DNA of 57,295 bases from an uncultured Anaerolineaceae bacterium (lineage in GTDB: Bacteria; Chloroflexota; Anaerolineae; Anaerolineales; E44-bin32), in assembly GCA_964482355.1 (NCBI GenBank), contig CAYZXF010000335.1, forward strand, positions 1 to 57,295. Direction: 5' to 3'. The translations under genes were made by a program, and so were the position numbers. Under the pieces are notes generated by a model. The model was not told the DNA's origin. It did not search any database and saw only the letters and a program-made list of their open reading frames with translations. Below, piece by piece: positions 7,725 through 52,326 of this stretch; position 1 is the stretch's first letter; each line of letters starts with the position of its first letter.

Positions 7725-7739
7725 TGTGACTTAGTCACA
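7725..7739. repeat. Palindrome TGTGAC-TTA-GTCACA (weak relative of the 19-bp palindrome)
   Basis: Read directly. It has the same GTGAC-N3-GTCAC architecture as the three exact 19-mers and lies just after the moron stop codon. Confidence 0.3.
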
Positions 7740-7746
7740 TAGGAAA

Positions 7747-7773
7747 GGGGCCGACCCAAAATGAGCCGGCCCC
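7747..7773. terminator. Hairpin between convergent genes (candidate bidirectional terminator)
   Basis: GGGGCCG-N13-CGGCCCC. On the minus strand it is followed by CTTTCC, on the plus strand by TGCATTGTT. It sits between the 7008-7718(+) and 7798-8076(-) stops. The U-tracts are weak. Confidence 0.4.
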
Positions 7774-8087: not shown

Positions 8088-8942
8088 TTATACGCCAACC
8101 AGAGAGCTGCCGTCATGGTTGATAACCACGACACCGCTATTCTGGAGCAGTTGTGAGCCCATGTAAATCGAGCAACGCGCCCAGGAATAATCCTGTTCCT
8201 CATCGTAGCCCGCCCGAGCCTCCAGATCGTCCGCGTTATAGGCATGGCCTATCGAGGATTTGTGGAAGCAAAAACATTTCTCTGCATTGGTGCCAACACC
8301 CGGCAGATTCGGATGCACGACCCACATCATGTTCAGCCACATATACGAAATTGGCTTGTCGCGCCAGGCCGGGTCCGCGTAGCGGGTCGGGCCGCCGTCG
8401 ATGTATTCGCGAGAGCCAAATTCCTTGACCTGCATCATGAACGCCTCATAAGCCGGCGTCACCAACATGCAGATGTTTGAATCCCACGGTACTTCAGCAA
8501 CACCGAGAATGGTTTTGGCGCGCAGGGTAAGACCCAGATCCGCCGTCACCGCTGACGTACCGGCCGTGACTGTGGCCGTGTTCAGTTCGGTGATGATGTC
8601 CTGATCGATCTTACGATTGATGACGCCCATGCAGGTCTGCTGCATGATCGCGCGCTGATTGCCTTGCGAAGCGAAGATGTTGAAATCTGTCTTTCGAACC
8701 AGATCGTGCCACTCGACCAGCGTTGCAACCGGCTGGCTGAGGTTATCGCCGCGTGCCGGAATGAGACCGTTTACGCCACGAGTTTTAGCGGTAGCACCGC
8801 CAGAATCAGCTACCAGAAAGGTCGCCTGATTGCCCTTGATGACCGCTTCTGTGGTCACAAAAGAGCGCAACAGGGACTGGAGCTGCTCGAACCCGGCAAT
8901 GAATTCCTGCCGGTATTGAATTTGGAACGCTGTCTCGGCCAC
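8088..8942 (-). CDS. Major capsid protein (by synteny)
   Basis: 284 aa with a GTG start at 8942 preceded by GGGAGA and a 6-nt spacer. It follows the portal-scaffold order. The N-terminus is MAETAFQIQYRQEFIAGFEQLQS.... The family cannot be named without a search. Confidence 0.7.
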   Translation of the reverse strand: MAETAFQIQYRQEFIAGFEQLQSLLRSFVTTEAVIKGNQATFLVADSGGATAKTRGVNGLIPARGDNLSQPVATLVEWHDLVRKTDFNIFASQGNQRAIMQQTCMGVINRKIDQDIITELNTATVTAGTSAVTADLGLTLRAKTILGVAEVPWDSNICMLVTPAYEAFMMQVKEFGSREYIDGGPTRYADPAWRDKPISYMWLNMMWVVHPNLPGVGTNAEKCFCFHKSSIGHAYNADDLEARAGYDEEQDYSWARCSIYMGSQLLQNSGVVVINHDGSSLVGV

Positions 8943-9115: not shown

Positions 9116-9247
9116 TCAATAGCTGTGTGCGCTTTTTCGTACCTTTTTGAAGCCGCCCGTGGCTCGGTACATCGCGACTTGTGTTCGCGTGTATTGCCGT
9201 CCTGACGACGATTTGTTGCGTTTTTTGCCAGCTTTTTTGTGCGGCAT
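9116..9247 (-). CDS. Candidate 43-aa Lys/Arg-rich small protein
   Basis: Below the ORF-track cutoff. ATG at 9247 is preceded by AGGAG plus a 6-nt spacer. Translation: MPHKKAGKKRNKSSSGRQYTRTQVAMYRATGGFKKVRKSAHSY. Confidence 0.4.
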   Translation of the reverse strand: MPHKKAGKKRNKSSSGRQYTRTQVAMYRATGGFKKVRKSAHSY

Positions 9248-9256
9248 GTCAATCTC

Positions 9257-9394
9257 CTATCCTTTTTGTTTCGCAGCGCGGGCACGTCGGCGCGTGCCCT
9301 CACTGCGTTGCGGTGCCACAACCGGCCTTACCTCACGAGCAGGCCTGACGCTGGATACTACCTGTCTGCTTGCTTTGCGAAATAAGCTGGCCAT
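9257..9394 (-). CDS. Candidate 45-aa Arg/Lys-rich small protein
   Basis: ATG at 9394, 16 nt downstream (in the transcription direction) of the 19-bp palindrome. The SD is weak (GGA). Translation: MASLFRKASRQVVSSVRPAREVRPVVAPQRSEGTRRRARAAKQKG. Confidence 0.25.
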   Translation of the reverse strand: MASLFRKASRQVVSSVRPAREVRPVVAPQRSEGTRRRARAAKQKG

Positions 9395-9410: not shown

Positions 9411-9429
9411 GGGGTGACATTGTCACCCC
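9411..9429. repeat. 19-bp perfect palindrome GGGGTGACATTGTCACCCC, copy 1
   Basis: Read directly. It overlaps the scaffold-gene stop codon (9423-9425). The same 21-mer GGGGGTGACATTGTCACCCCT occurs at 34191-34211 and, reverse-complemented, at 19790-19810. Confidence 0.9.
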
Positions 9430-17716: not shown

Positions 17717-18316
17717 CTATTGGTTATCAGGAGCTGCTGCTTGCGGGGTTGCCGTCTCCGTCGCCTTGCCTTCAATCAGAGCTCCGGCCTTCTCGTTCTC
17801 TATCAGCAAACAAGCGAAGCGGCGCATACGTTCACGGTCTGATAGATCAAGCGTGTGATTCACCTCGCCGCTGTGTTTGACCTCCACTGACGGGCCGTAT
17901 AGATGCGGAGCAACAGCAGCCATAAGGCGTAGACGTGTGTCCACCCGCAGTTTGGAGCGCTGCACATGCTCAGTGTCAAGAGCCTCATATTCAACACCAT
18001 TGCGCCCCTTCTTGATGATGTAGTCAGTCGTCCCATCGTCCGCAATCAGCACGCTTTCGTCAGCCCATGTGTGCATCTGATTATGTCGCGCGCGGGTGAA
18101 CCTCTCCTGAAAGGCAGAATTCTCATGCTTCCACCGATAAACCGTTGTTGTTGATGGCATATCGCGCTGCAGGCATATCTGTACCAGTGTTGTGCCGCTT
18201 TCCAGTTGTTCGAAGATGGAACGCGCCAGCGCCTCAGAATAGATCGTCGGACGACCAATAATCGCTTTGTCTTCAGGAGTAGTGTCTGTTGCTTGCAGGG
18301 TATGGGTTTCAGACAT
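17717..18316 (-). CDS. terS: Terminase small subunit-like HTH protein
   Basis: 199 aa. IGRPTIYSEALARSIFEQLESGTTLVQICLQRDMPSTTTVYRWKHENSAFQERFTRAR...RSKLRVDTRL matches the widespread family annotated as phage terminase small subunit. It is separated from terL by about 3.4 kb. Confidence 0.55.
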   Translation of the reverse strand: MSETHTLQATDTTPEDKAIIGRPTIYSEALARSIFEQLESGTTLVQICLQRDMPSTTTVYRWKHENSAFQERFTRARHNQMHTWADESVLIADDGTTDYIIKKGRNGVEYEALDTEHVQRSKLRVDTRLRLMAAVAPHLYGPSVEVKHSGEVNHTLDLSDRERMRRFACLLIENEKAGALIEGKATETATPQAAAPDNQ

Positions 18317-18379: not shown

Positions 18380-18408
18380 TTGACAGCGGAACATTGTTCC
18401 TGTATAGC
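18380..18408 (+). promoter_or_regulatory. Sigma70-like promoter with a palindrome in the spacer
   Basis: TTGACA (18380-18385), a 17-nt spacer, then TATAGC (18403-18408). The spacer contains GGAACATTGTTCC (18388-18400). The promoter lies upstream of the J-domain gene. Confidence 0.5.
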
Positions 18409-19735: not shown

Positions 19736-19790
19736 GTAACCGCGCCAAGTGGCTGGCCCTGGCCGGCTGTTTGGCGGGAGTTATTCCCAA

Positions 19791-19809
19791 GGGGTGACAA
19801 TGTCACCCC
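19791..19809. repeat. 19-bp perfect palindrome GGGGTGACAATGTCACCCC, copy 2 (inverted orientation)
   Basis: Read directly. It is intergenic and lies 22 nt upstream of the ATG at 19832, which has an AGGAG SD. Confidence 0.9.
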
Positions 19810-19831
19810 CCTACAACGCGAGGAGATAGAA

Positions 19832-20053
19832 ATGCACAGAGAAGACCAAACGCGCATTGTTGAGGAAATGTGCAAGGGCTTGCGCGAGACAATGCTCGCC
19901 AAGCTGGACAAAGTCCCGGAGCGCTGGGAGGGCATGGAGTTGCGCGCCCTACTTGCAGACACAGCGCGCGAAAACTTCGTAATTGGCAGGCGAGACAGGC
20001 GGCTCGGCATGTGGAAGGACTACGAAAACGATCGCTTAGTCTTGAATATATAA
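19832..20053 (+). CDS. Hypothetical protein
   Basis: 73 aa with a strong SD (AGGAG). Confidence 0.55.
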   Translation: MHREDQTRIVEEMCKGLRETMLAKLDKVPERWEGMELRALLADTARENFVIGRRDRRLGMWKDYENDRLVLNI

Positions 20054-20254
20054 ATGAAACCAGATGCTTCGACCTACGATCCGCGGCCTGAATACCTGGC
20101 TGAGTTAGTCAAGTCCACCGGGCTAACTCGGCCAGTGCTAGCCAAGCTGCTTGGTGTTGATCAGCGCACGATCCGATACTGGTTGGCCGGCAAGCGCCAG
20201 TTCCCCTACTCGGTGCAATATGCGCTGGAGGTCTTGGTTTTGTCTCCAGATTAG
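20054..20254 (+). CDS. HTH (XRE/Cro-like) DNA-binding protein
   Basis: 66 aa. GLTRPVLAKLLGVDQRTIRYWLAGKR is a typical helix-turn-helix. Confidence 0.6.
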   Translation: MKPDASTYDPRPEYLAELVKSTGLTRPVLAKLLGVDQRTIRYWLAGKRQFPYSVQYALEVLVLSPD

Positions 20255-20278
20255 TGTCTAATTCACTTATGGAGATTA

Positions 20279-20485
20279 GTGAAAAAGATAAAGTCAGGTT
20301 GGCGAGGCAGCGGCAGACGCGGAGAGGATATGCCAACCGCAAAACTATCTACCATCCAAGTTATCGAGATTCGCGAACGCTACGCTATCGGCAAGGTGAT
20401 GCAGAAAGATTTGGCTGCGGAGTACGGCATTAGCAGGGCCCAGATGCACAACATTCTAAACAGAAAGCAATGGACGCACATTTAG
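20279..20485 (+). CDS. Small HTH protein
   Basis: GTG at 20279 is preceded by GGAG. AKLSTIQVIEIRERYAIGKVMQKDLAAEYGISRAQMHNILNRKQWTHI parallels the C-terminal HTH of the HNH protein at 25271-25759. Confidence 0.5.
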   Translation: MKKIKSGWRGSGRRGEDMPTAKLSTIQVIEIRERYAIGKVMQKDLAAEYGISRAQMHNILNRKQWTHI

Positions 20486-21414: not shown

Positions 21415-21942
21415 TCAAATTCCATGTGTGCTGCTAAAACCAAGCCTTATCTCCGCTGACCTACGGCGGCAACAAGCTTCAAAAAAGTCCTTGCCAGCAT
21501 ATAGATAATACCTCTTACCCTGAGAATCTATCGTGGACTGCCATCTTTGTCGAGTTTTCTGCCAATAAACTCCCGTGATGCCGTATGTATTATCGGACCT
21601 CTTGCCTCTGTTCTTACAATTGTCTGAGCGAGTCGCTGGACGTAAGTTTTTCAGTCTATTATCCAGTGAATTACGATTGATGTGGTCAATCTCGTCAACC
21701 AAGACACCATGCACGATCAGCCAAATAATCCGTGCCACGTTATAAACTTTACCATTGATTTTAACGCGGCGAGAAACGTACCCTTGCTTCGTCCTTACTG
21801 TTGATCCAGCTATAGATCCGACCTTGTATTTACTATTACAAGCCGGAGACCGCCTGATTAGATTCTCTCCATCGTACTCAAAGCGCTCGATAGCAACCGC
21901 AAGATTCAGCATTTTTATCAATCCAAAACATCCTGATATCAC
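21415..21942 (-). CDS. HNH homing-type endonuclease
   Basis: VDEIDHINRNSLDNRLKNLRPATRSDN (an HNH motif) is followed by an AP2-like GITGVYWQKTRQRWQSTI. The start is uncertain. Confidence 0.7.
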   Translation of the reverse strand: MISGCFGLIKMLNLAVAIERFEYDGENLIRRSPACNSKYKVGSIAGSTVRTKQGYVSRRVKINGKVYNVARIIWLIVHGVLVDEIDHINRNSLDNRLKNLRPATRSDNCKNRGKRSDNTYGITGVYWQKTRQRWQSTIDSQGKRYYLYAGKDFFEACCRRRSAEIRLGFSSTHGI

Positions 21943-23785: not shown

Positions 23786-25283
23786 ACGCTATATTCCTCG
23801 ACGTTATCCAGTTAAGTACCCTCTTGTCAGGCGGCACAGAGACCATGTTCATCCAGTGCCGCTCTGGCCAGCAGCCACACTTTTCTTTGAATTTCACGGC
23901 CGCCCAGCCGGGCTTGTAGTTGTGCTCGGCGCCGTAGCGCTTCAACATGCAGAAGAGAATCTCGTGCGACACCCATCCCTTTGGCAGCTTCTCCACCAAC
24001 GCTTTGCCGATGCGCACCAGATCAGCTTGAGTGGTGGCGACGTCGCGTTTTGTAAACGGCACCTTCCAGCCACATTCCGGGCATACCCTGGAGCGGCTGA
24101 AAATATAATGGCACTCCTCGCACTCGTGCTGTTTGGCCTCCTCAGCCTCTCCGGATTCTTCGTTGCGCGTCCAGTTCTCGCAGGCCTTCTTGCCCGGATC
24201 TAGGCGCCAACGAAACAGGTCATCTGCCTGCCCAAGTGCTGGCACGTTGCCGGCGTGATCTAGGACCATGGTGGCACCACCATCGATATTCGGACGCATA
24301 CCTCGGCCAAGGGATTGATGATGGAAAACGATGCTTTTGGTCGGCCTAGCTAAGACCACACAATTGATACTTGGAGCATTGTACCCGTAACTCGCGATTC
24401 CAACGTTTACAAGCACTTGAATTATCTGGGATTTGAACTGTTCGTTAAGCTGATCTCGATCGCTATCATCAAGGTGAACGTGCAATGCACCGGCACTAAT
24501 TCCAACCTGCTTAAACCGATCGGCGAGCAGCTCACAATGAGCAATATCAACAGCAAACACTATCGTATGGCAATCAGAGGCCAACCGCAGCCAGTTGTCG
24601 ACGACATCTCCCACTAATTTCACACAGCGATTTGACAGTTTTTTTACCTCATAATCGCCGCGCCGAATCTTAATCCCCTCCATGTCTGGTGTAGCACCCC
24701 CCCAGTATTCCATTTTGCAAAGATGTCCATCTTTGACAAGCCTTCTTATGGTTGTGATGTGCTTTAGAGTCGACCAGAATGTTCCAAGACCCTTACCAGT
24801 CAGTCTGGCTGGCGTTGCTGTATAGCCATCGATAGCAGCCTTGGGTGCATAGTGTTCAAGTATTTCCAGAATCTTAGGGGCGGTTGACAAATGGCACTCA
24901 TCGGTCAACAGACGGTCCACCTTTGGAAACCAAAAGTCAGAGCGCCGAGCACGTGAAATCAGTGTAGGCCACGACACAATATGAATTGGGGATACCGGAT
25001 TCCATCGCTCACCCTCCCTTTTTGCCCTGAGCATGGTGACGTTTTCTGCACCACAAACCTCACTTACAATATTATGAGTCTGACCAAATATCTCATTACG
25101 CGGAGTCAAAATCGCCGTCGAATTGCCGCGCTCCATTTCACGCTTTGCGGTAAATGCCTGCATCAAACTTTTGCCTGATCCGCACGGGGCTATGTGTATT
25201 GGCCGCAATTCTTTACCATGATTCAAAGCATAATTAACGGACTCCTCTTGGTAATCTCGAAGAACGAATGTCATACGTGACAC
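23733..25283 (-). CDS. SF2 (DEAD/DEAH-like) DNA helicase with a C-terminal zinc finger
   Basis: 516 aa. Motif I is APCGSGKS and motif II is LLTDECH. Helicase C motifs are present (QSLGRGMR). It also has CEECHYIFSRSRVCPECG. Confidence 0.8.
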   Translation of the reverse strand: MSRMTFVLRDYQEESVNYALNHGKELRPIHIAPCGSGKSLMQAFTAKREMERGNSTAILTPRNEIFGQTHNIVSEVCGAENVTMLRAKREGERWNPVSPIHIVSWPTLISRARRSDFWFPKVDRLLTDECHLSTAPKILEILEHYAPKAAIDGYTATPARLTGKGLGTFWSTLKHITTIRRLVKDGHLCKMEYWGGATPDMEGIKIRRGDYEVKKLSNRCVKLVGDVVDNWLRLASDCHTIVFAVDIAHCELLADRFKQVGISAGALHVHLDDSDRDQLNEQFKSQIIQVLVNVGIASYGYNAPSINCVVLARPTKSIVFHHQSLGRGMRPNIDGGATMVLDHAGNVPALGQADDLFRWRLDPGKKACENWTRNEESGEAEEAKQHECEECHYIFSRSRVCPECGWKVPFTKRDVATTQADLVRIGKALVEKLPKGWVSHEILFCMLKRYGAEHNYKPGWAAVKFKEKCGCWPERHWMNMVSVPPDKRVLNWITSRNIAYAKGREKSERRKSSVSS

Positions 25284-25759
25284 CAGCTTTTTTTCGCACG
25301 CACCTTGTAGATTGTCCGGCGGGTAACGCCATATTGTTTGGCTAAGATTCTTGGAGCTTTTGTGCTTTGTCTTATTTCCAATACCCCTGCTTCGGTCAAT
25401 TTGGCCTGCGGCTTCTGACTTCCTACCTTATGTAACATTGCCGTGTTATCTCGCCCTCGTTCTATGCAATCCGCCCTATTTGTTTTCGCACTGCCTGCGT
25501 AAAGGTGATCGGGATTAATACAGTCTGTGACATCACAATGGTGGCAAATGTGCACCCCGTCTGGAATTGCGCCATGAGCAATATGATAAGAAACCCTATG
25601 TGCTAAGTATCTCTTATTGTTGATTGTTAGCAGCCCGTAGCCTTGGCGATGCTTCCAGCCCCTCCATCTCCAACACCCAGCAGCGTCTACCACATAGCCA
25701 TTCAGAATCCTTTTCTTAATGGATTCAGTGATCTGGTACTGGCGTTCCTCAATCTCCAC
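25271..25759 (-). CDS. HNH homing-type endonuclease with a C-terminal HTH
   Basis: 162 aa. LAHRVSYHIAHGAIPDGVHICHHCDVTDCINPDHL is an HNH_3-type motif. AKLTEAGVLEIRQS...LAKQYGVTRRTIYKV is an HTH. The gene overlaps the helicase start by 13 nt. Confidence 0.75.
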   Translation of the reverse strand: MEIEERQYQITESIKKRILNGYVVDAAGCWRWRGWKHRQGYGLLTINNKRYLAHRVSYHIAHGAIPDGVHICHHCDVTDCINPDHLYAGSAKTNRADCIERGRDNTAMLHKVGSQKPQAKLTEAGVLEIRQSTKAPRILAKQYGVTRRTIYKVRAKKSWCHV

Positions 25760-28764: not shown

Positions 28765-29303
28765 TACGCTCCCTTCACCAGCGGCGATTGTTCTCTGCAT
28801 CCCCACGGCTCCAGCTTTTCGCATTGTCCAGGTGAACAGGAGCACCAGTTTACCCTTGCACTAAGCATGGTCTGCAGAGCCTTGAGTGCTTCATCATGGC
28901 TGCCCATCTGTAACATTTCGAATACGCCCTTAACCTCGGGCAATATTTCATCATTGATCGATGGCTGGTAAACAATAGCCCCGGGCCTAACATCCAAGTC
29001 GCCAACTGCAACCGCTTCGAGCTGTACAGGAGGCGGATTCGGCACCACCTTGACGTAGTTCTCAAACTCGAACGCATCGACAATGCTCATGCGGCCATCG
29101 CCATGTTTGACAAGCCACGCAAGATCAGGAATCGGCAGCTCCTCGCCGTTAATCGTGATCCAATTTTGGCCATCAATGGTGAGAAACGCTCGACTGTCCA
29201 GCCACTCAGGCCATAGCTTTTCCTGATAGCGAGATGACTCGGTGATCTGATAACCCTCGATCGTTTCATCACCAATGGTGTAGCGAAAATCTTGGTCAGC
29301 CAT
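28764..29303 (-). CDS. Hypothetical protein
   Basis: The track ORF is 28764-29396. I prefer the ATG at 29303 (MADQDFRYTIGDE...), just inside the ParB-like gene's 3' end. Confidence 0.5.
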   Translation of the reverse strand: MADQDFRYTIGDETIEGYQITESSRYQEKLWPEWLDSRAFLTIDGQNWITINGEELPIPDLAWLVKHGDGRMSIVDAFEFENYVKVVPNPPPVQLEAVAVGDLDVRPGAIVYQPSINDEILPEVKGVFEMLQMGSHDEALKALQTMLSARVNWCSCSPGQCEKLEPWGCREQSPLVKGA

Positions 29304-30027
29304 CGAAATCCCTTTTCGTTTGTTCAAGTGATGGAGTACGGTATGCGATGACCGCGTGCGCTGCCCATGTGGACACATACTCCAAATCCGCGACATCCGC
29401 TTGAGTCAGGTCCAGCCTGAGCGCATCGCCACCCGGATACGGGAAAGCCTTATACAGTGCGTTCGCCTGCCGGAGCTCATCGCGTTCGGTCTCCGCTTGT
29501 GTCGGCTCCGGCTTGGCCGCGCGATTATCGTCCGGGCTTGGCTCCTGAGTAGAGTTGGGGGGTGAATCGTTCACCCCTGGTTCTGCCGCTGCCGCCTGGT
29601 TCGCGATTCGTTGCACCGTGCGCTTGGTAACACAGCAAATATCGGCTTGCTCCTGACGGCTCATTTGGGATATCTGCGGGTCCTTCAGGGCGATCTCAAC
29701 GGCGTTTCGCTTGTCAGCGCTAGTGCGACGCAGGCCGTGCTCGCTGTTCCCACCAAGCGCGTGTATGAGCGCCTCGTGCATGCCGCCTTCGTGGACTTCG
29801 CACTCTATTTCGTCCCGCTCAGCATGGACCGCGGCATAAAGACGGTGAAAACCGCGTGAGAGAATCGTTCTCGAGGAGTCCTTCTCACGAAACACATCGA
29901 TCGGCGGCATAATGGCGCCCGCCTTGATGTCCTCGCAATACTCGTCAATGATGTCCTTGTGCAGCCGGGTGCGAACCTGGGTTTTATCTGATGCCTCTAT
30001 GGAATCGCATTTAAGAAACGTCGCCAC
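29296..30027 (-). CDS. ParB N-terminal-domain protein with an HTH
   Basis: 243 aa. MPPIDVFREKDSSRTILSRGFHRLYAAVHAERDEIECEV is a ParB/Srx-like box. ICCVTKRTVQRIANQ is an HTH. Confidence 0.75.
   Translation of the reverse strand: MATFLKCDSIEASDKTQVRTRLHKDIIDEYCEDIKAGAIMPPIDVFREKDSSRTILSRGFHRLYAAVHAERDEIECEVHEGGMHEALIHALGGNSEHGLRRTSADKRNAVEIALKDPQISQMSRQEQADICCVTKRTVQRIANQAAAAEPGVNDSPPNSTQEPSPDDNRAAKPEPTQAETERDELRQANALYKAFPYPGGDALRLDLTQADVADLEYVSTWAAHAVIAYRTPSLEQTKRDFDG
29559..29577. repeat. Palindrome GGGGTGAA-TCG-TTCACCCC (variant, inside the ParB-like CDS)
   Basis: Read directly. It has the same outer GGGGTGA.../...TCACCCC arms as the 19-mer and encodes GVNDSPP. Confidence 0.35.
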
Positions 30028-31143: not shown

Positions 31144-31644
31144 TCACGCCGTCTCCGCAATAGAGGTTCGTTGCTTTTCGCGGAACAGCACCTTTTCTGC
31201 GATCGATTTATTTTCGACCGATAGATTACAAGGAAAACAGGCCATAACTAAATTAAATGGATGATTATTACCGCCCTTGCTGATCTCAAGTAAGTGCTCC
31301 AGCGTCAGGATTATTTCCAGCCCACAGAACCAACATGCCGGTCCATCTCTAGCAATAATGGTCCGCTCAAGAACTGTCTTACCTTTACCTGGGCGCTTGG
31401 TTTTATCGCCATCAAGGCCAGACCACGATTTTCTATTGATATAGCAGTCATACGCCTCGGCAAGGGCATCGTCCCAAGTCAAGTTGCCCCGCTTATTTTT
31501 GTAGAGAACCGATATTTGACCACGAACATTAACGCGCAAAACCTCCCACTCATTCGTAGGTGACAATAGTGCGGCACCGTTCCTCGATAGATATTCCCGG
31601 AACTTTTTTAGGCGCAACTGGCTATTGTGGACAGGTATTGTCAT
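31144..31644 (-). CDS. HNH nuclease translationally coupled to the HerA-like ATPase
   Basis: 166 aa. The HNH core is CWFCG...LEHLLEISKGGNNHPFNLVMACFPCN. It has an ATGA overlap with the ATPase stop. It is visibly AT-richer, with ATA/CTA/AGA codons. Confidence 0.7.
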   Translation of the reverse strand: MTIPVHNSQLRLKKFREYLSRNGAALLSPTNEWEVLRVNVRGQISVLYKNKRGNLTWDDALAEAYDCYINRKSWSGLDGDKTKRPGKGKTVLERTIIARDGPACWFCGLEIILTLEHLLEISKGGNNHPFNLVMACFPCNLSVENKSIAEKVLFREKQRTSIAETA

Positions 31645-33824: not shown

Positions 33825-33959
33825 TCACTGCAGCAGCCAATAAATGATTAGACCAACCGCCATGAGAACGAATGGCAGGTCAAAAAACCAGAATTTAATT
33901 GGATTTTCTTCAAATTCATCGATCAGGCGCCGAAATACGCCGCGTTTTTGTTTGGTCAT
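33825..33959 (-). CDS. Candidate 44-aa membrane protein
   Basis: Below the track cutoff. It has an ATGA overlap with the RHH stop. Translation: MTKQKRGVFRRLIDEFEENPIKFWFFDLPFVLMAVGLIIYWLLQ (C-terminal TM segment). Confidence 0.35.
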   Translation of the reverse strand: MTKQKRGVFRRLIDEFEENPIKFWFFDLPFVLMAVGLIIYWLLQ

Positions 33960-34108
33960 ACAGGAATCCCCTTCTTTTCCGCCTGACGATGGATGTGATT
34001 CAACACATAGTTGGCAGCACTGATGCCTTCCTGATTCGCCAGCTTATGTAAGGCTTCACGCTCAAGCTCTTTCAAGCGCATTTGAAACTTCTTGTCTTTT
34101 CTGTCCAT
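33956..34108 (-). CDS. Ribbon-helix-helix (Arc/CopG-like) regulator
   Basis: ATG at 34108 lies within track ORF 33956-34222. MDRKDKKFQMRLKELEREALHKLANQEGISAANYVLNHIHRQ shows a beta-strand followed by two helices. No SD is visible, so the mRNA may be leaderless. Confidence 0.55.
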   Translation of the reverse strand: MDRKDKKFQMRLKELEREALHKLANQEGISAANYVLNHIHRQAEKKGIPV

Positions 34109-34191
34109 ACACGGTAATGTACACACAAACGGCATGACATGCAACATGCACACGCGAGGAAAAAAAATGACGCCGAATAAGCCAATTGAGG

Positions 34192-34210
34192 GGGGTGACA
34201 TTGTCACCCC
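34192..34210. repeat. 19-bp perfect palindrome GGGGTGACATTGTCACCCC, copy 3
   Basis: Read directly. It lies in the divergent region between the RHH gene and the recombination operon, ending 14 nt before the ATG at 34225 and 1 nt before its AGAGGA SD. Confidence 0.9.
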
Positions 34211-34224
34211 TAGAGGAACCAACC

Positions 34225-35283
34225 ATGACTGAAAAGAGCGCCGAAGACTTCATACCTGGGCAGGACGAGCTCGACAGCCCGGGCACGCTGATCAATTTCA
34301 ACATCAACGACGTGCGCATTGCCGAAGCCAAGGAGGAATTCAAAGCAATTGATGCGGCCGTCGACATGGATGCCGCCAAGAAAGCCAAGAAGGTGCTCAC
34401 CAAGATGCGCACCACGCTGGCTGACGCTCACAAGGAGCAAAAAGCGGAGGCCCTAGCCCATGGACAGAAGCTCGACGCCGAGAAGCGCCGCCTGCTGGCG
34501 CTGATCGCAGAGGTAGAGGACCCCATCAGCAAGCAGATCACGACCATAAAGAATGCCATCGAACGCCAAGAAGAAGATCGTATTGGCAAGATACAAGAGG
34601 CCATTCAGGTAATCGCAGACCTCGCCGAGGACCGCCACAGCCTGACCCTCGAGGAGCTGGAAGCACGCTACGGACAAGTCAGTACGATTTCGCTGACCGA
34701 GGAGGTGTATCAGGAGGAAATTGAACGCGCCGGCACCGTCAAGGAAGACGCTGAAATGAAGCTGCGTATCACTATTTCCAACGAAAAGGAGCGACTCGAA
34801 GAAGTGGCCAATCAGGAGGAAATCAGGTCTGAAAATGAACGTCGGCAAAAGGAGCTGGACGAACGCCTGGCCAAGCTGGACGTGGAGGAGGCCGAGCGTA
34901 AGGCTGCACAGAAGAAGACCGATGACGCTGCGGCCGAGAAACTGGCCAAGGAGAACGCTGAAAAGCAGGCCGAACTGGATCGCCAAGCCGAGGAAAACCG
35001 CAAGGCCAAGAAGCTAATCTACGACGAGAATGTGCGCATTGATCAAGAGAGGGCTGACAAGGAGGAGCGTGAGCGCAAGGAGCGGGAGCAACTCGAGGCC
35101 ACTGAGCGGGCTCTCAAGCTGGCTCCTGACACCGAGAAGCTTGAGATATATGCCGAGCAGTTATGCAGTATCCCTGAGCCAGAGCTTGATACCGACGCGG
35201 GCAAACGTGTGCTGGCGCTGACCGTTGAAAAGCTGTTAGTCGCGATCAACTATATCCACGACGAAACGAGGAAAATGAAATGA
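34225..35283 (+). CDS. Coiled-coil protein, first gene of the recombination operon
   Basis: ATG at 34225 (MTEKSAED...) follows AGAGGA. The protein is a long Glu/Lys/Ala-rich coiled coil. Similar proteins often precede Erf/RecT genes, but the family is not verified. Confidence 0.6.
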   Translation: MTEKSAEDFIPGQDELDSPGTLINFNINDVRIAEAKEEFKAIDAAVDMDAAKKAKKVLTKMRTTLADAHKEQKAEALAHGQKLDAEKRRLLALIAEVEDPISKQITTIKNAIERQEEDRIGKIQEAIQVIADLAEDRHSLTLEELEARYGQVSTISLTEEVYQEEIERAGTVKEDAEMKLRITISNEKERLEEVANQEEIRSENERRQKELDERLAKLDVEEAERKAAQKKTDDAAAEKLAKENAEKQAELDRQAEENRKAKKLIYDENVRIDQERADKEERERKEREQLEATERALKLAPDTEKLEIYAEQLCSIPEPELDTDAGKRVLALTVEKLLVAINYIHDETRKMK

Positions 35284-43095: not shown

Positions 43096-46000
43096 CTAGT
43101 CTCGCTCACCCAGTAGCCATTCGTAAACTTCGGTGTCGTCCTCGGACCATACTACATCGATAAAGCGATTCGTTTGTGATGCCGGCAAATGTAAGCCCGT
43201 TCCAATCACGTTCACCGCGACTCGCCGGAACTGCTCATCGGCCTCACCTTGCGCCGCCTGCTGCACCAATTTGTACAAATCATTGGAGAATGAGCCTATC
43301 GGCGTATTGCCACCACCGTACTTGGCCGCCGCAATCTCGCGCACGAACGGTACGCCTGAGAACGCTGAGTCCACCGTCGCCTTAGCGAGCCACCAGCCCC
43401 ACGGCTCATCATCGTCATCATCCGGTAGCCTGCCGTAGAGCCAAGCCGAAGCCACCGCCTCAACCGTGAATAGCAAGAACAGGTCAAAGGTGTAGGCCGC
43501 TACCTGCCCCGGCTTCGTGAAATCAGTTGTCTTGGTTTTCTCGTAGGCAATATTGCCCTTGGCCAGCATGTAAGAAAGCAGCACGGTCCAGATACGGATA
43601 AATTGCGACTGCCGATTCTTTTTCGTACCGAGCGTGCCGCGCTCAAGGCCGGAGCGATCTGAAAAGAAACCTGACGTCTGCGCATTCTCAACCTGCACAT
43701 CGGCGTACTGAATAGCCTCTTTCTGGTTCAGGCCCTCAATGTTCTGCGCTTTCCAGTACGCGCCCAGCCAGGTCGACACATCCACTACTGACTGAGCCGC
43801 CATGATGGGCAGAAAATACGTCGCTGACAGTGCATTCATTGACCGTTTCAACCCTGTTGGCGCGGGTCCAAACATGGATTCAAGATGTGCCCGGGTGTCG
43901 GACACATCCTTGTTCCAGGTATTGTCCACGTAGCGCGTTTTCATGAAGGAACTCATCGACATGACATCGATGTACGCCTGCTTCGGATTTTTCATCATGC
44001 GACCGACACCATGGCCATAGGCCTGTGAACCGATCACCGCAATCGTCTGAAGAATGCCAGTGTATTGCAGCAACATCACCACCATGTTGAATGCCAGTTT
44101 GGATTTTGTGAATCCAGTTCGAATCCAGGCAGCACTTTGTTCCACCACGCCCTCGGCCGCGAGTTCTCCAATCGCAGAATCAGTGAGCCATAGATTAAAC
44201 GCTTCCAGCGCCTTTTCATTGCCAGTGTTAGTGAACGAATCGCGCACGTCGTCATGGTCCAGCAAGCGCTTCACGTAGTTGATCTCATCACCAATGGCAA
44301 TATCGCGAATGATCTCGCGTAGATGAAAATTGATCGTGTCGAGCCCCAACCGTATGACATTGCCATGATTTTTGACGCGCTCGTAGGTAGAGCCAGCGCG
44401 AGTCGACGCAAAAATAGAGGTGCTCGCGGTCATGCGCTGCATCAGGTCTTCCAGCTCCTGATTCTTTTGTGCAGCGCGTCCGCCCTTGCGCGTGTGACGC
44501 CGATCGTATCTCAGTGGGTAATAGCCACCCTTGACCAGAATCTCGGCACCGTCCGATGTGCGGATGCTAAATGGCAGTGCCTCGACCTTCTGTGGCGCGA
44601 TGCCGCGGCGCCGTTTGGCCGCATCCGACAGGTCATCCCAGTAAGTATCGAGGTAATCCCACATATCCTGCACGAACGCCCAGTCACGCTGATCCAGGGT
44701 AGCGAGAGCCGCCACCACGCCCTGCTCACTGTAGGCCGCGCCGCCGCGGTTCTTGATGCCGCCCAATAATGCCTTGCGATTGCCTTCATTGCCCCAGTTG
44801 AGCGCGATCGAGAGAATGTCAGACTTGGATAATTTGCCCAGTCCCGGTATGACGTCGCCGCGTTGATAAAGATCACCCAGCTCAGCCAACGAATAATGCC
44901 GCTGGTAGATTTGTGATACATCGTCCTCCATCTTTCGAAAGCCTGGCAGCAGGCGCTTCGCATAGGCTTCGCGAATGGGCACGACAATCAACCGCGTCAA
45001 GGCTCCAAAGCCTGATTTGTCCAGCATTCGAGCCAATGATCCTGGCCGCAGCCATGCCGCAATGCCTTCACTGACGGACAGTTTTGCGCTCTCGCCGACC
45101 GTGGGTCTGGCCACACCAATATCGATCTCGGCATTATTTTCGTACATGCTCGAGGCAATCTCATCGGCGCGCTGCTGCAGGTCGACCCTTTCACCATCGA
45201 CAATCACCTGATACTTGGCACTGGCTTCCTTTTCGAGCTGCATCACCAGGTCTCGGATACCGTCAAACTCCTCGGAGGTGAGATTTTGCCAATTGGTGCC
45301 GGTGTCCTGCAGTGCCGCTATCAGACTCGGCGGCGCCATCAGCCGACCATCATCAATGGCCGCTATTATTTCCGCCATAGCCTCCTCGCGATCGATCTGG
45401 GAGCCAGAGATTTTGCGTAAGTTGATGCCCTCAAGAACAGCATCGATTTTCTCCAGCATGCCGGCCTTGCCCAAGCGCTGACGCACCTTGATCTTGTCGA
45501 ACTTCTTGAGGTAAGCCTGTGTGCGCGCATGCCGATCCTTAGCCCGCACGGCGGCACGATAGAGCTCGTGTGACTCGACCTGCTTGCGCTTTTGATCGTA
45601 AGCCTTTTGATAGTCCTTGGTCTCCATGGCACCAAACGCGGCACGACCAGCCTTGCGCTCAGCGATCAGGTATTTATGCGGATTGATATCGCGAATCTTT
45701 TTCGCATCGATGAACCTTCTTGCGGCCTGTTTGATCAGAGCCAGCTCACCGCGGCGAGGGAGCTGACCCTTATTGGCTTCGCGTGCCTGACGCTCCTCAC
45801 GCTTAGTCTGGCGTTTGGTGGCGCCGATGATCTTGCGGTCCTCACGCAGCCGCCTGCGCAAAGCGCGCATCTCAGCAGCGAGAATCTGCGCCCGCTTCTC
45901 GTTGTGCACCACTCGCACAGCCTCATTGGCAATGCTGCCATCGACAAGAGGATCAGGAAACATCGACGCCATACGCGCCTCAGTCTCAGCGGCAATCCAG

Positions 46001-47517
46001 GCCTCCATTTTCGGTGCTTTGATGAGCGCCTCTACGAGTTCCACCGCGCCATCGAAAGCGAAGACTTGTGCCGCCACATCGACGTCGACGCCCCCCTTGA
46101 CCGAGTACACCCACGGCCGCGGCAAGCGAGCAACGAACGCCTTACCAAAGCGCTTCACCAGATCGTCACGGCTGAGTTTGAATTTCACCTGATCCGGTGC
46201 TGTGGTGCCGTCTGGATTAGTGCCACGCTGTAGCATGGCCAGCGCCCGATAGACCGGCATGGCTTCAGCCTCAGTTCTGACCTGGGCGGACATTTTTTTC
46301 TTCTCATCGGCCCACCACTGCTGCGACTGGCGTTGCATATAGCGCATGGCCTGAGCGGAGGCGTCATCCACGGCCTGTTGATGCGCAGCAATGATGTTCT
46401 GCTTGTAAGCGTCGTACACCTCCTGTGATACGCCCATGTCCTCAGCGGTAGCAAACAGTGCGGCATACTCCTGCACCCGCGCAGCTTCTGCGACCTGCGC
46501 ATCGGTGGCGATAATGCGATCGAACACACCCCGCACCTCATCGTTGAGGCCGCCAAAATTCTTAAGCTTCGCCAGTGAGCGATAAATGCTCAGCAACCAG
46601 GCGCGAAACGACTGGAACACACTCTCCAGGCCCAGCGTCGGTGCCTTGCCTTCGCGCAAATAAACCTCAAAGGATTCTGCCCACCGCTCATGATGTGCAG
46701 AGGTAATCTCACTGCGATCCTTTACTCCGAGGAATTCCAATGCCTTAGCAAAATCCTCGCGCGTCTGCTGGGGTGACCCGGTCATCTCAGATAGGTCGCC
46801 CAACAACTCCAGATACAAGTGAGCGCTTTCATGCAAAAAGGTCGACAGGTTCCGCGCCTTGGTCATGCGGATGATGGCCTTGTTGTTCTTATCGAAGGTG
46901 ATCGAGCCGCGCTTGGTCTGATAGAGCGTCTTTGTAGGACTAAAAACCTGCTCGGACTCAGCCTCAATCTGCTCCAAGCGAGTCGCAATCTCAGCCAGGC
47001 GCTGCTGTATTTCGCCTTGGCGCTGCTGCAATTTCTTGTAGCTGGCCAGTAGCTCCAGCGGGGTGCCACCCTTGAGCCCAAACACAGCCTTCTGTTTGAG
47101 GTTTTTATTACCGAACAAAATCGCCGTCAGACCATTGAGTATCTGCTCGTCGGTCTCGGTTCCGCCCAGCTCCGCAACCCGATCGTTGACAATACCGATA
47201 TCGCTCAGCTCGCCGGTCAGATCCGCGGCTTCCGACGCTAATTGTGTTCTTTCAGCCGCCAGCTTACCCAGTGCGCGGCCCTGCCGCTCCTCACGGAACT
47301 GCGCAACCTTGGCCAGTGGAGTGGTGACGTCAGTGAGTTTGGCGCCTTCAGTGCGCGCGCGGGCCGCGAGTTGAATCACATTTTGTGAGGCACCGATCAA
47401 GAGCTTACGGACTGCCTGCTCATCGCTGAGTCCGTCCTCGATGTATTGCTCAAGCGTTGTGACATCCTCAGCAGACACCAGCCGTTTCATTTTCTTGATG
47501 CAGTCTTTGAGCGCCAT
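43096..47517 (-). CDS. Giant internal/ejection protein with an HExxH motif and C-terminal TM helices
   Basis: 1473 aa. TFLHESAHLYLELLGD occurs at about residues 227-242. The middle is long and helical. The C-terminal third has several hydrophobic segments (LAFNMVVMLLQYTGILQTIAVIG, ATYFLPIMAAQSVV, FIRIWTVLLSYML, AAYTFDLFLLFTVEAVASAWLYG). Confidence 0.7.
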   Translation of the reverse strand: MALKDCIKKMKRLVSAEDVTTLEQYIEDGLSDEQAVRKLLIGASQNVIQLAARARTEGAKLTDVTTPLAKVAQFREERQGRALGKLAAERTQLASEAADLTGELSDIGIVNDRVAELGGTETDEQILNGLTAILFGNKNLKQKAVFGLKGGTPLELLASYKKLQQRQGEIQQRLAEIATRLEQIEAESEQVFSPTKTLYQTKRGSITFDKNNKAIIRMTKARNLSTFLHESAHLYLELLGDLSEMTGSPQQTREDFAKALEFLGVKDRSEITSAHHERWAESFEVYLREGKAPTLGLESVFQSFRAWLLSIYRSLAKLKNFGGLNDEVRGVFDRIIATDAQVAEAARVQEYAALFATAEDMGVSQEVYDAYKQNIIAAHQQAVDDASAQAMRYMQRQSQQWWADEKKKMSAQVRTEAEAMPVYRALAMLQRGTNPDGTTAPDQVKFKLSRDDLVKRFGKAFVARLPRPWVYSVKGGVDVDVAAQVFAFDGAVELVEALIKAPKMEAWIAAETEARMASMFPDPLVDGSIANEAVRVVHNEKRAQILAAEMRALRRRLREDRKIIGATKRQTKREERQAREANKGQLPRRGELALIKQAARRFIDAKKIRDINPHKYLIAERKAGRAAFGAMETKDYQKAYDQKRKQVESHELYRAAVRAKDRHARTQAYLKKFDKIKVRQRLGKAGMLEKIDAVLEGINLRKISGSQIDREEAMAEIIAAIDDGRLMAPPSLIAALQDTGTNWQNLTSEEFDGIRDLVMQLEKEASAKYQVIVDGERVDLQQRADEIASSMYENNAEIDIGVARPTVGESAKLSVSEGIAAWLRPGSLARMLDKSGFGALTRLIVVPIREAYAKRLLPGFRKMEDDVSQIYQRHYSLAELGDLYQRGDVIPGLGKLSKSDILSIALNWGNEGNRKALLGGIKNRGGAAYSEQGVVAALATLDQRDWAFVQDMWDYLDTYWDDLSDAAKRRRGIAPQKVEALPFSIRTSDGAEILVKGGYYPLRYDRRHTRKGGRAAQKNQELEDLMQRMTASTSIFASTRAGSTYERVKNHGNVIRLGLDTINFHLREIIRDIAIGDEINYVKRLLDHDDVRDSFTNTGNEKALEAFNLWLTDSAIGELAAEGVVEQSAAWIRTGFTKSKLAFNMVVMLLQYTGILQTIAVIGSQAYGHGVGRMMKNPKQAYIDVMSMSSFMKTRYVDNTWNKDVSDTRAHLESMFGPAPTGLKRSMNALSATYFLPIMAAQSVVDVSTWLGAYWKAQNIEGLNQKEAIQYADVQVENAQTSGFFSDRSGLERGTLGTKKNRQSQFIRIWTVLLSYMLAKGNIAYEKTKTTDFTKPGQVAAYTFDLFLLFTVEAVASAWLYGRLPDDDDDEPWGWWLAKATVDSAFSGVPFVREIAAAKYGGGNTPIGSFSNDLYKLVQQAAQGEADEQFRRVAVNVIGTGLHLPASQTNRFIDVVWSEDDTEVYEWLLGERD

Positions 47518-51927: not shown

Positions 51928-52326
51928 CTATGCGGCCTGTTGAGGAATCGCGATAATCTTCTCGATGAATCCTTGATTGGTGCGCTCAACGTTGAAGACA
52001 TAGCCGGTACGCTCCGCTGGACGAGAGTTTTTCTGAATCTCAGCGAGCACTGATTTCAGCGGTGTTAAATCGAACGTCTGTGACTTACTCACATTTTGCG
52101 ACTTAATGAGCGCCTGTAAGCTCGCAATCACCTCTAGTTGAACCTGATTGCGCGCTCCTTCCGCCTCGGCTCTCGCGCGATTGGACGCATTGAGTTCACT
52201 GATAGCTTTCACCAGGTCATCGAATCCGGCGATACGCTGCGCCGGCCTGTCAATTTTGATCTTGGCGCCGCCTTTGAGCAGTTCAACCAAGTCGGCCAGG
52301 TTTAATTCATCTGAATATTCAGCCAC
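51928..52326 (-). CDS. Hypothetical protein
   Basis: 132 aa, helical. It has an 8-nt overlap with the upstream 860-aa gene. Confidence 0.5.
   Translation of the reverse strand: MAEYSDELNLADLVELLKGGAKIKIDRPAQRIAGFDDLVKAISELNASNRARAEAEGARNQVQLEVIASLQALIKSQNVSKSQTFDLTPLKSVLAEIQKNSRPAERTGYVFNVERTNQGFIEKIIAIPQQAA

Follow-up and report, generated by a model that had tools for sequence, protein, structure and literature searches.

Palindromes scattered over an uncultivated phage genome are candidate docking sites for the phage's own ParB-like protein

The locus and its palindromes

The window analysed here, positions 1 to 57,295 of contig CAYZXF010000335.1, is the genome, some 57 kb long, of an uncultivated phage. 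A 19-bp palindrome, GGGGTGACAWTGTCACCCC, recurs in it at scattered places, and it encodes a ParB/KorB/Noc-like protein, the putative reader of that palindrome (Table 1). The 19-mer, which can be written as two arms and a centre, GGGGTGACA(T/A)TGTCACCCC, is found in exactly three copies with 0 mismatches (copies 1 to 3, at 9411-9429, 19791-19809 and 34192-34210), where 0.03 copies are expected by chance and 0 of 100 shuffles gave three; no additional copy appeared in the window when up to three mismatches were allowed. A sequence-only reading of the same DNA had judged the three exact copies not to be due to chance, and had pointed to a common 21-mer, to the short distances to start codons and to the lack of a U-tract, all of which hold. 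The 21-mer, GGGGGTGACATTGTCACCCCT, is present at all three copies and is inverted at 19790-19810; the distances are 14 nt from copy 3 to the ATG at 34225, 22 nt from copy 2 to the ATG at 19832 and 16 nt from copy 1 to the minus-strand ATG at 9394; and a U-tract directly follows none of the window copies on either strand, so that, despite the stem-loop, they do not have the make-up of intrinsic terminators. Conservation around the copies ends at about 21-23 nt.

A scan for perfect inverted repeats revealed a fourth, variant palindrome, GGGGTGAAtcgTTCACCCC (equivalent to GGGGTGAATCGTTCACCCC), at 29559-29577, with the same G...T flanks as the other copies; it had been overlooked because five central positions differ. 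Copies 1 to 3 are designated type A and the variant type B; between the two types the closing pair shows a compensatory change from C:G to A:T. The fourth copy encodes G-V-N-D-S-P in a disordered linker of the ParB-like protein. Copy 1 covers the stop codon of the scaffold gene (TGA, 9423-9425), a position within the late operon.

Table 1. Coordinates of the palindromes and of the main genes and modules of the window (RHH, ribbon-helix-helix; HTH, helix-turn-helix; SD, Shine-Dalgarno sequence)
Feature	Coordinates	Strand	Remarks
Copy 1, class 1 type A	9411-9429		overlaps scaffold stop; upstream of small basic gene 9257-9394 (minus)
Copy 2, type A	19791-19809		upstream of ATG 19832, plus-strand module with two HTH proteins
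Copy 3, type A	34192-34210		divergent region between RHH/ParB (replication) operon and recombination operon
Fourth copy, class 1 type B (GGGGTGAA-tcg-TTCACCCC)	29559-29577		within ParB-like gene
Single palindrome of sister-lineage type (TGTGACTTAGTCACA)	7725-7739		beside terminator-like hairpin 7747-7773, downstream of head genes
58-nt segment missing from relatives	34172-34229	plus	copy 3 and new SD (AGAGGA); ATGAC direct repeat at bounds
ParB/KorB/Noc-like protein, 243 aa	29296-30027	minus	ParB N-terminal domain, HTH, disordered linker, C-terminal helical domain
TerS	17717-18316	minus	same strand: TerL, portal, scaffold (ending 9423), tail genes
Capsid gene	8088-8942	minus	
Replication module	34.1 to 20.5 kb	minus	begins with 50-aa RHH gene (33956-34108); contains ParB-like gene
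Recombination operon	start 34225	plus	g1, ERF, YqaJ
Short module	18.4-20.5 kb	plus	two small HTH proteins (20054-20485)

A protein with the fold and domain order of the ParB family

The gene that contains the fourth copy encodes a protein whose membership of the ParB family is supported by the fold and domain order of its predicted structure. It matches PHROG 1033, 'ParB-like partition protein' (E=3e-9), and, weakly, Pfam ParB_N (17.5 bits, below the cut-off). An AlphaFold (AF2) model obtained with 34 homologues has a predicted local distance difference test score (pLDDT) of 88.7 and places the HTH in helices 123-130 and 134-147, ahead of a disordered linker at about residues 148-175 (pLDDT 51-62); the recognition helix, residues 134-144, reads TKRTVQRIANQ. 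Foldseek matched the model to ParB (7bnk), Noc (7ol9) and KorB (8qa8/8qa9) with E from 5e-7 to 6e-5, the matches to 7bnk, 7ol9 and 8qa8 ranging from 5e-7 to 3e-5, in alignments of about 145 columns that correspond to the N-terminal domain and the HTH. Both hallmarks, a ParB N-terminal (sulfiredoxin-like) domain and a central HTH behind it, are present in the model. The neighbouring ATPase is HerA-like.

A palindrome inside the ParB-like gene, together with further copies elsewhere (three in the window), is found likewise in the relatives L093, L451 and L452 (relatives and loci are designated by L numbers). The linker palindrome is read as GVNDSP in the window and as GDNVTP in L093, which has the canonical type A sequence; because the frames differ, the palindrome must be kept at the nucleic-acid level.

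Recognition helix and palindrome type covary

We gathered 118 homologues of the ParB-like protein and compared the DNA surrounding 33 of them. Where the recognition helix is of class 1, [TS]KR[TS]VQ[RT][IV]AN, a GGGTGA-N5-TCACCC palindrome is found in seven of nine loci (the window with four, L093, L121, L246, L247, L249 with two, and L251). Where it is of class 2, TRETVNRISR[RK], all four loci (L446, L450, L451 and L452) carry (T)GTGAC-TNA-GTCAC(A), in two to five copies each, and zero class-1 sites. The 17 loci with other helices have neither palindrome type. Identity to the ParB-like protein of the window is similar in carriers (about 48-64%) and non-carriers (45-56%), and the most distant carrier, P0099, at about 50% identity, has both the helix and the site; the link is therefore with the helix and not with general relatedness. 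Moreover, palindromes of the matching class recur at the same places: in the linker-coding part of the ParB-like gene (window 29559, L093, L451 9553, L452 2821) and directly ahead of g1 (copy 3 of the window, L247, L446 4768, L450 7073, L451 5234).

The recognition helix of CRP is RETVGRI, with an R-E-x-x-x-R pattern. The class-2 helix has the same pattern, its RETVNRI segment being close to that of CRP, and has precomputed Pfam matches to Crp and HTH_Crp_2; the class-2 site holds the CRP half-site TGTGA/TCACA. The resemblance to CRP/FNR-type operators (TGTGA-N6-TCACA) extends to the GTGA/TCAC core in dyad symmetry, but the phage spacer is 5 bp instead of 6 bp and the HTH belongs to a ParB-type protein, not to a regulator that binds cyclic nucleotides.

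Canonical parS is TGTTTCAC-GTGAAACA. At L247 5290-5308 the palindrome GGGGTGAAA-C-TTTCACCCC contains its hexamers, GTGAAA and TTTCAC, in everted order, possibly by coincidence. In the window, the palindrome at 7725-7739 is of a type found elsewhere solely in loci with the ParB-like helix TRETVNRISRR, and may or may not belong to the site system. It comes directly after a hairpin of terminator-like form, GGGGCCG...CGGCCCC with TTTCC behind it on the minus strand, that follows the gene downstream of the capsid gene.

The covariation of helix and site is the pattern to be expected if the HTH of the ParB-like protein reads the palindromes. Since the palindrome found at corresponding places is another one in relatives whose recognition helix differs, we favour the view that the palindromes are scattered docking sites for the ParB/KorB-type protein encoded at 29296-30027, which the sequence comparison makes probable, though well short of certain. 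The sequence-only reading had suggested operators for a dimeric phage regulator, which is what the covariation favours, and from the regulators then put forward the comparative evidence picks out the ParB/KorB-like protein. Each palindrome would be a dyad-symmetric double-stranded DNA site bound by a dimer, the HTH of each monomer reading one half-site, GGGGTGA(C/A), whose GTGA core would be recognised in the manner of CRP-type helices, while the centre is left uncontacted. The site inside the protein's own gene would amount to a parS-in-parB arrangement, and the others would place the protein in the control region of the recombination operon, ahead of the module of small HTH genes and in the stretch that separates the scaffold gene from the head genes. 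If the example of KorB on plasmid RK2 and of SopB on phage-plasmid N15 holds, an occupied site would weaken or stop transcription that passes through or close to it, that of the protein's own gene included, and bound protein may seed a larger nucleoprotein assembly along the phage DNA. Repression or roadblock, autoregulation and DNA organisation are candidate effects by this analogy, and the polarity, like the binding, is inferred.

Several observations weigh against this view. The arginine motif for binding cytidine triphosphate (CTP), GERRxRA (box II), is not present in the ParB-like protein, in which the segment reads S-R-G-F-H-R-L-Y-A (family consensus DGFHRL), and among 30 open reading frames (ORFs) scanned against Pfam none matched a ParA partner family; with GFHR in place of GERR and no ParA found, neither a classical ParABS nor a KorB-CTP mechanism is established. 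In the DNA covered, the class-1 loci L245 (10 kb) and L248 (4 kb) have no perfect site, although the L245 linker has a relic with one mismatch, and loci of the QKIAN sub-class (L250, L252) have none either. Relatives of the L006 lineage have many copies of the palindrome TGTGATCSGATCACA, yet the ParB-like gene was not recovered there. A symmetric operator explains neither the arrival of copies as discrete insertions or deletions nor the bias of the central base on the sense strand (see below), and the association could be carried by another protein of the early region that is co-inherited with the ParB-like gene.

ParB-like genes are very common in phage genomes, but for almost none of them have the DNA targets and the role been established. 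The present family offers a ready-made specificity code, with two helix classes and two palindrome classes at the same genomic positions. No ParA, integrase or plasmid-maintenance gene was found among the window ORFs tested; with ParA and the canonical CTP motif apparently lacking, the family may reveal a role for a ParB-type protein in a phage without signs of a plasmid-prophage stage.

Comparison with known site systems

ParB, Noc and KorB all bind palindromes of 13-16 bp scattered over a replicon. One of the closest likenesses is with KorB of the IncP plasmid RK2 and its operator OB: a ParB-family N-terminal domain is followed by an HTH, and the site is an odd-length palindrome with a free centre, binding being predicted in the case of the phage. 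The OB core, TTTAGCGGCTAAA, is a 13-bp odd palindrome (PMC11790492). In both replicons the sites are scattered, those of RK2 lying at promoters or far away from them in a system of global transcription regulation. KorB acts as a CTP-dependent sliding clamp and has KorA as its partner; the phage protein, with GFHR instead of GERR, is not known to bind CTP or to have a partner. The phage site is 19 bp and not 13 bp long and of another sequence, and the replicon is a phage in which no partition ATPase was detected. We suggest, by analogy, that the ParB-like protein works as KorB does at OB, and claim for it neither a CTP clamp nor a partition system.

The linear phage-plasmid N15 also encodes a ParB-type protein, SopB, with four perfect inverted repeats, IR1-IR4. 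These four sites are dispersed across the N15 genome. The centromere sequence of the repeats is GTGCGACC-nn-GGTCGCAC (PMC7205306). N15, however, has SopA and partitions as a plasmid-prophage, and the likeness drawn here is one of arrangement. The stoperators of Cluster A mycobacteriophages are likewise many copies of one short repressor site across a phage genome; they typically lie in short intergenic gaps, in a fixed orientation relative to transcription. They block elongation (PMC9283540). In contrast to the four or five near-symmetric sites seen here, with a putative ParB-like binder, they are asymmetric, 13-14 bp long, number 20-35 per genome and are read by a monomeric immunity repressor.

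A full-text search with the core of the palindrome gave one biologically relevant match, the consensus of E. coli matS, the site of MatP in the terminus macrodomain. The 13 central base pairs of the palindrome, GTGACATTGTCAC, are this consensus letter for letter (PMC8669397, PMC3603311); all three type A copies fit GTGACRNYGTCAC, as do the variants with a C or G centre in L249 and L251, the published pattern being GTGAC[AG]N[TC]GTCAC (PMC3603311). The phage might thus bear the signature of a chromosome terminus, to be read by the MatP of its host, for instance for the unloading of MukBEF or the positioning of its DNA. We consider such mimicry very unlikely. The consensus is that of E. coli, to whose genomes the window shows no similarity; the GGG/CCC flanks, which are strictly conserved, lie outside matS; and type B (GTGAA...TTCAC) and the sites of the sister lineage (GTGAC-TNA-GTCAC) break the consensus at the same genomic places, as does the palindrome at 7725. 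MatP, known from E. coli and Vibrio, acts in the chromosome terminus and is encoded by the host (an RHH/four-helix-bundle protein), whereas the type of the phage sites follows a phage protein and not a host factor; no MatP homologue was found among the window ORFs by phmmer with a MatP query. E. coli and Salmonella prophages, moreover, avoid matS, 500 of them having zero sites (PMC3603311), which lends the mimicry no support. A slimmer chance still is given to a host MatP acting on the GGG-flanked matS in place of, or together with, the ParB-like protein, so that MukBEF would be evicted from phage DNA or the DNA tethered at the division site.

Turnover of the copies, unit by unit

In exact scans the 19-mer turned up in no more than three viral contigs, two of them from the same phage, and in 29 metagenome contigs. 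About a dozen of the latter are relatives of the window, their flanking genes sharing 30-93% of amino acids with it. A scan of 185,579 reference genomes gave nine matches, about the chance level by our estimate and none related to the phage; the motif is therefore not a host repetitive extragenic palindromic (REP) element, another host repeat or a common host operator. The related carriers form a few lineages with several copies each: 3' of TerS, in the scaffold-capsid gap, 3' of a lysozyme-like gene, past the RHH region, at a convergent junction and inside the ParB-like gene, in L093 exactly at the position of the fourth copy of the window. The sequence-only reading had proposed a search for the motif at equivalent operon boundaries in related phages; it recurs there upstream of g1, in each lineage's own type, but copies of the 19-mer itself lie mostly at non-homologous places.

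In the closest relatives by capsid (90-93% identity) the motif is absent. These relatives, of the L006 lineage, have many copies of another GTGA-N5-TCAC palindrome, TGTGATCSGATCACA, with two GATC (Dam) sites; it lies at 703, 3416 and 16385 (also 9206 and 20582) in L006, at 950, 3210, 4513 and 6744 in L356, and also occurs in L009, L010, L021 and L050. The loose pattern GGGGTGA-N5-TCACCCC gave mostly noise in viral contigs and, among the matches listed, one extra related site, in L196; the 14-mer GTGATCGGATCACA gave, among the matches listed, more copies in the L006 lineage, where the ParB-like gene was not recovered. A search for loci by the helicase recovered four only, L446 among them.

Copies come and go as discrete units of about 20 to 58 bp. 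Copy 1 lies in about 36 nt that are missing from relatives, where the TAA of the scaffold gene leads straight into GGAG and the start codon (ATG) of the small basic gene; the palindrome supplies the TGA that now terminates the scaffold gene. The 58-nt insertion with copy 3 sits downstream of the ancestral SD and ATG (34167) of the recombination operon, so that the ancestral start now opens a 21-codon upstream ORF (34167-34232) overlapping the present ATG at 34225; L093 and L121 read GAGGAAAAA..ATGACCGAAAAT without interruption, and the window GAGGAAAAAAAATGAC[58 nt]TGAAAAG. The intergenic region after the lysozyme-like gene can be aligned between L094 and the window, except that L094 carries the palindrome there as one clean insert of 20 nt. 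Such gain and loss of sites of about 20 bp, unit by unit, suggests that regulatory sites may spread by insertion and not by point mutation.

This behaviour is also that of a selfish miniature mobile palindrome, similar to REP elements or miniature inverted-repeat transposable elements, with little or no function for the phage. The clean insertion in L094, the extra nucleotides at copy 1, the ATGAC direct repeat that bounds the insertion at copy 3, the biased orientation and the turnover of positions between lineages while the sequence stays identical would all fit such an element, which we nevertheless regard as quite unlikely: no transposase or RAYT-like gene was detected among the ORFs scanned, the flanks that travel with the copies are not conserved, and none of the 185,579 reference genomes has the sequence as a repeat. 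At the ParB linker and upstream of g1, moreover, sites recur with a lineage-specific sequence, and their return to these functional places points to selection for a function. A mobile palindrome could at the same time be a protein-binding site.

Position relative to transcripts, and the centre of the site

The sequence-only reading had also considered the palindromes as marks of operon 5' ends, which their positions contradict: copy 1 is inside the late operon, copy 3 came with an insertion past the ancestral SD and ATG, and relatives carry copies after TerS, after the lysozyme-like gene, at convergent junctions and in coding sequence. The related proposal, that the transcribed palindrome acts as an RNA hairpin (8-bp stem, 3-nt loop) near the ribosome-binding site, where it would stabilise, process, attenuate or translationally control the mRNA, is a weaker alternative to ParB-like sites and, in our estimate, unlikely. 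A stem-loop is indeed predicted at -14.4 kcal/mol (z about -3.9), most copies lie 12-22 nt ahead of a start codon between co-directional genes, the change between types A and B at the closing pair is compensatory, and one copy in L249, at a convergent junction, is followed by T5. On the other hand, the window copies have no U-tract while relatives own canonical U-tract terminators; some copies are within coding sequence (the ParB linker); the positional equivalents in the sister lineage (TGTGACTNAGTCACA) are AT-richer palindromes and not stable GC hairpins; either orientation yields almost identical RNA; and no Rfam family was matched in the whole window at gathering thresholds.

The centre of the site bears on this question in two ways. 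In type A, each of the 10 related sites for which the direction of transcription is clear has A as its central base when read on the sense strand, a strand that is not itself A-rich (A/(A+T) = 0.515); the direction is ambiguous for copy 3, in a divergent region, and for two sites at convergent junctions. This bias would fit a transcribed element. Against a strict strand rule stand two sites, at equivalent places in L249 and L251 and with a common 3' flank (tgccg), that differ solely in having C or G at the centre. Replication-strand bias was rejected as the cause of the orientation, as copies 1 and 2 agree relative to transcription and would differ relative to a fork from the 34-kb region. The arms, in turn, are usually complementary up to the single central base (9+1+9), which may be A, T, C or G; positions 9 and 11 thus remain complementary though they are unable to pair in a hairpin, and arms of this form with a variable, flipping centre fit a duplex dyad site.

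As a dyad site, the palindrome could also be the operator of another small regulator of the phage, the RHH protein or an HTH protein of the short module, an assignment that has a slim chance. A palindrome of 19-21 bp suits a dimer of RHH dimers of the Arc/Mnt type, and only 84 nt separate the start of the RHH gene from copy 3; the HTH module comes after copy 2, and L107 has an HTH orthologue and two copies of the palindrome. The RHH protein, a candidate in the sequence-only reading, is ranked low because the residues of its beta-strand do not track the palindrome: the DNA-facing residues are K-Q-R in the window and H-D-R in L093 and L121, all with an identical 19-mer, and the non-carrier L124/125 has the window-type strand KKFQMRM. 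In addition, the RHH control region of relatives has other repeats, GTACAGAC in two copies, that resemble an RHH operator, and neither the RHH nor the HTH protein accounts for a class-matched site within the ParB-like gene.

Other short elements

Just 5' of copy 2, at 19776-19788, lies a second palindrome, GGGAGTTATTCCC, which is GGGAATSATTCCC with one mismatch. L107 has the same tandem layout, with GGGGAATCATTCCC at about 1877-1890 and then a type A palindrome. In L122, GGGAATSATTCCC heads four repeated cassettes of about 60 nt, one per small gene (18251, 19034, 19630 and 20209), each made up of a small hairpin, the palindrome, an SD and an ATG in that order; they have the look of promoter or operator units repeated within the early module. 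In one lineage (L100, the same as L003, at about 1237-1251; L101 and L112 just 3') the type A palindrome stands beside TG(G/A)CCACTGGCCCGG, a second short palindrome-like element whose side varies by site. In the divergent region between TerS and the DnaJ-domain gene, a strong sigma-70-like promoter (TTGACA, 17 nt, TATAGC; 18380-18408) points toward the latter, and its spacer is occupied by a 13-bp odd palindrome, GGAACATTGTTCC (18388-18400), that has the ACAWTGT centre in common with type A.

Genome context

The cultured relatives of the phage are distant, with at most 41% identity in TerL and 26% in the capsid protein, and megablast of the copy-1 region against phages gave no match; IMG/VR holds 319 contigs with a related capsid gene. 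A scan of the window for tRNA genes found none.

The minus strand has two tiny and very basic ORFs in the gap that separates the scaffold gene from the capsid gene, 9257-9394 (MASLFRK...EGTRRRARAAKQKG) and 9116-9247 (MPHKK...GRQYTRTQVAMYRATGGFKK). The first is the tiny basic ORF of the sequence-only reading. Both are real genes, as they are conserved in the relatives L005, L006 and L007; their products may be small DNA-binding or internal head proteins. A lambda-N-like antiterminator, suggested by the arginine-rich tail of ORF 9257-9394, was rejected, the gene being conserved also in relatives free of the palindrome.

Two large minus-strand ORFs, 52319-54901 (860 aa) and 43096-47517 (1473 aa), match successive parts of phrog_9880 (positions 266-743 and 887-2202 of 2231), a PHROG family without known function whose relatives include giant proteins of Xanthomonas CP2 and BPP-1-type podophages; the protein appears to be split in the window, in parts about 5 kb from each other. 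Hairpin promoters of the N4 type, served by a virion RNA polymerase, were discarded as an explanation of the palindromes, as the 1473-aa protein gave neither a sequence match in the PDB nor evidence of an RNA polymerase. The replication module also contains three HNH-type homing endonuclease genes (31144-31644, 25271-25759 and 21415-21942, all on the minus strand), and in the relatives L246, L252, L451 and L452 genes of this type adjoin the ParB-like gene.

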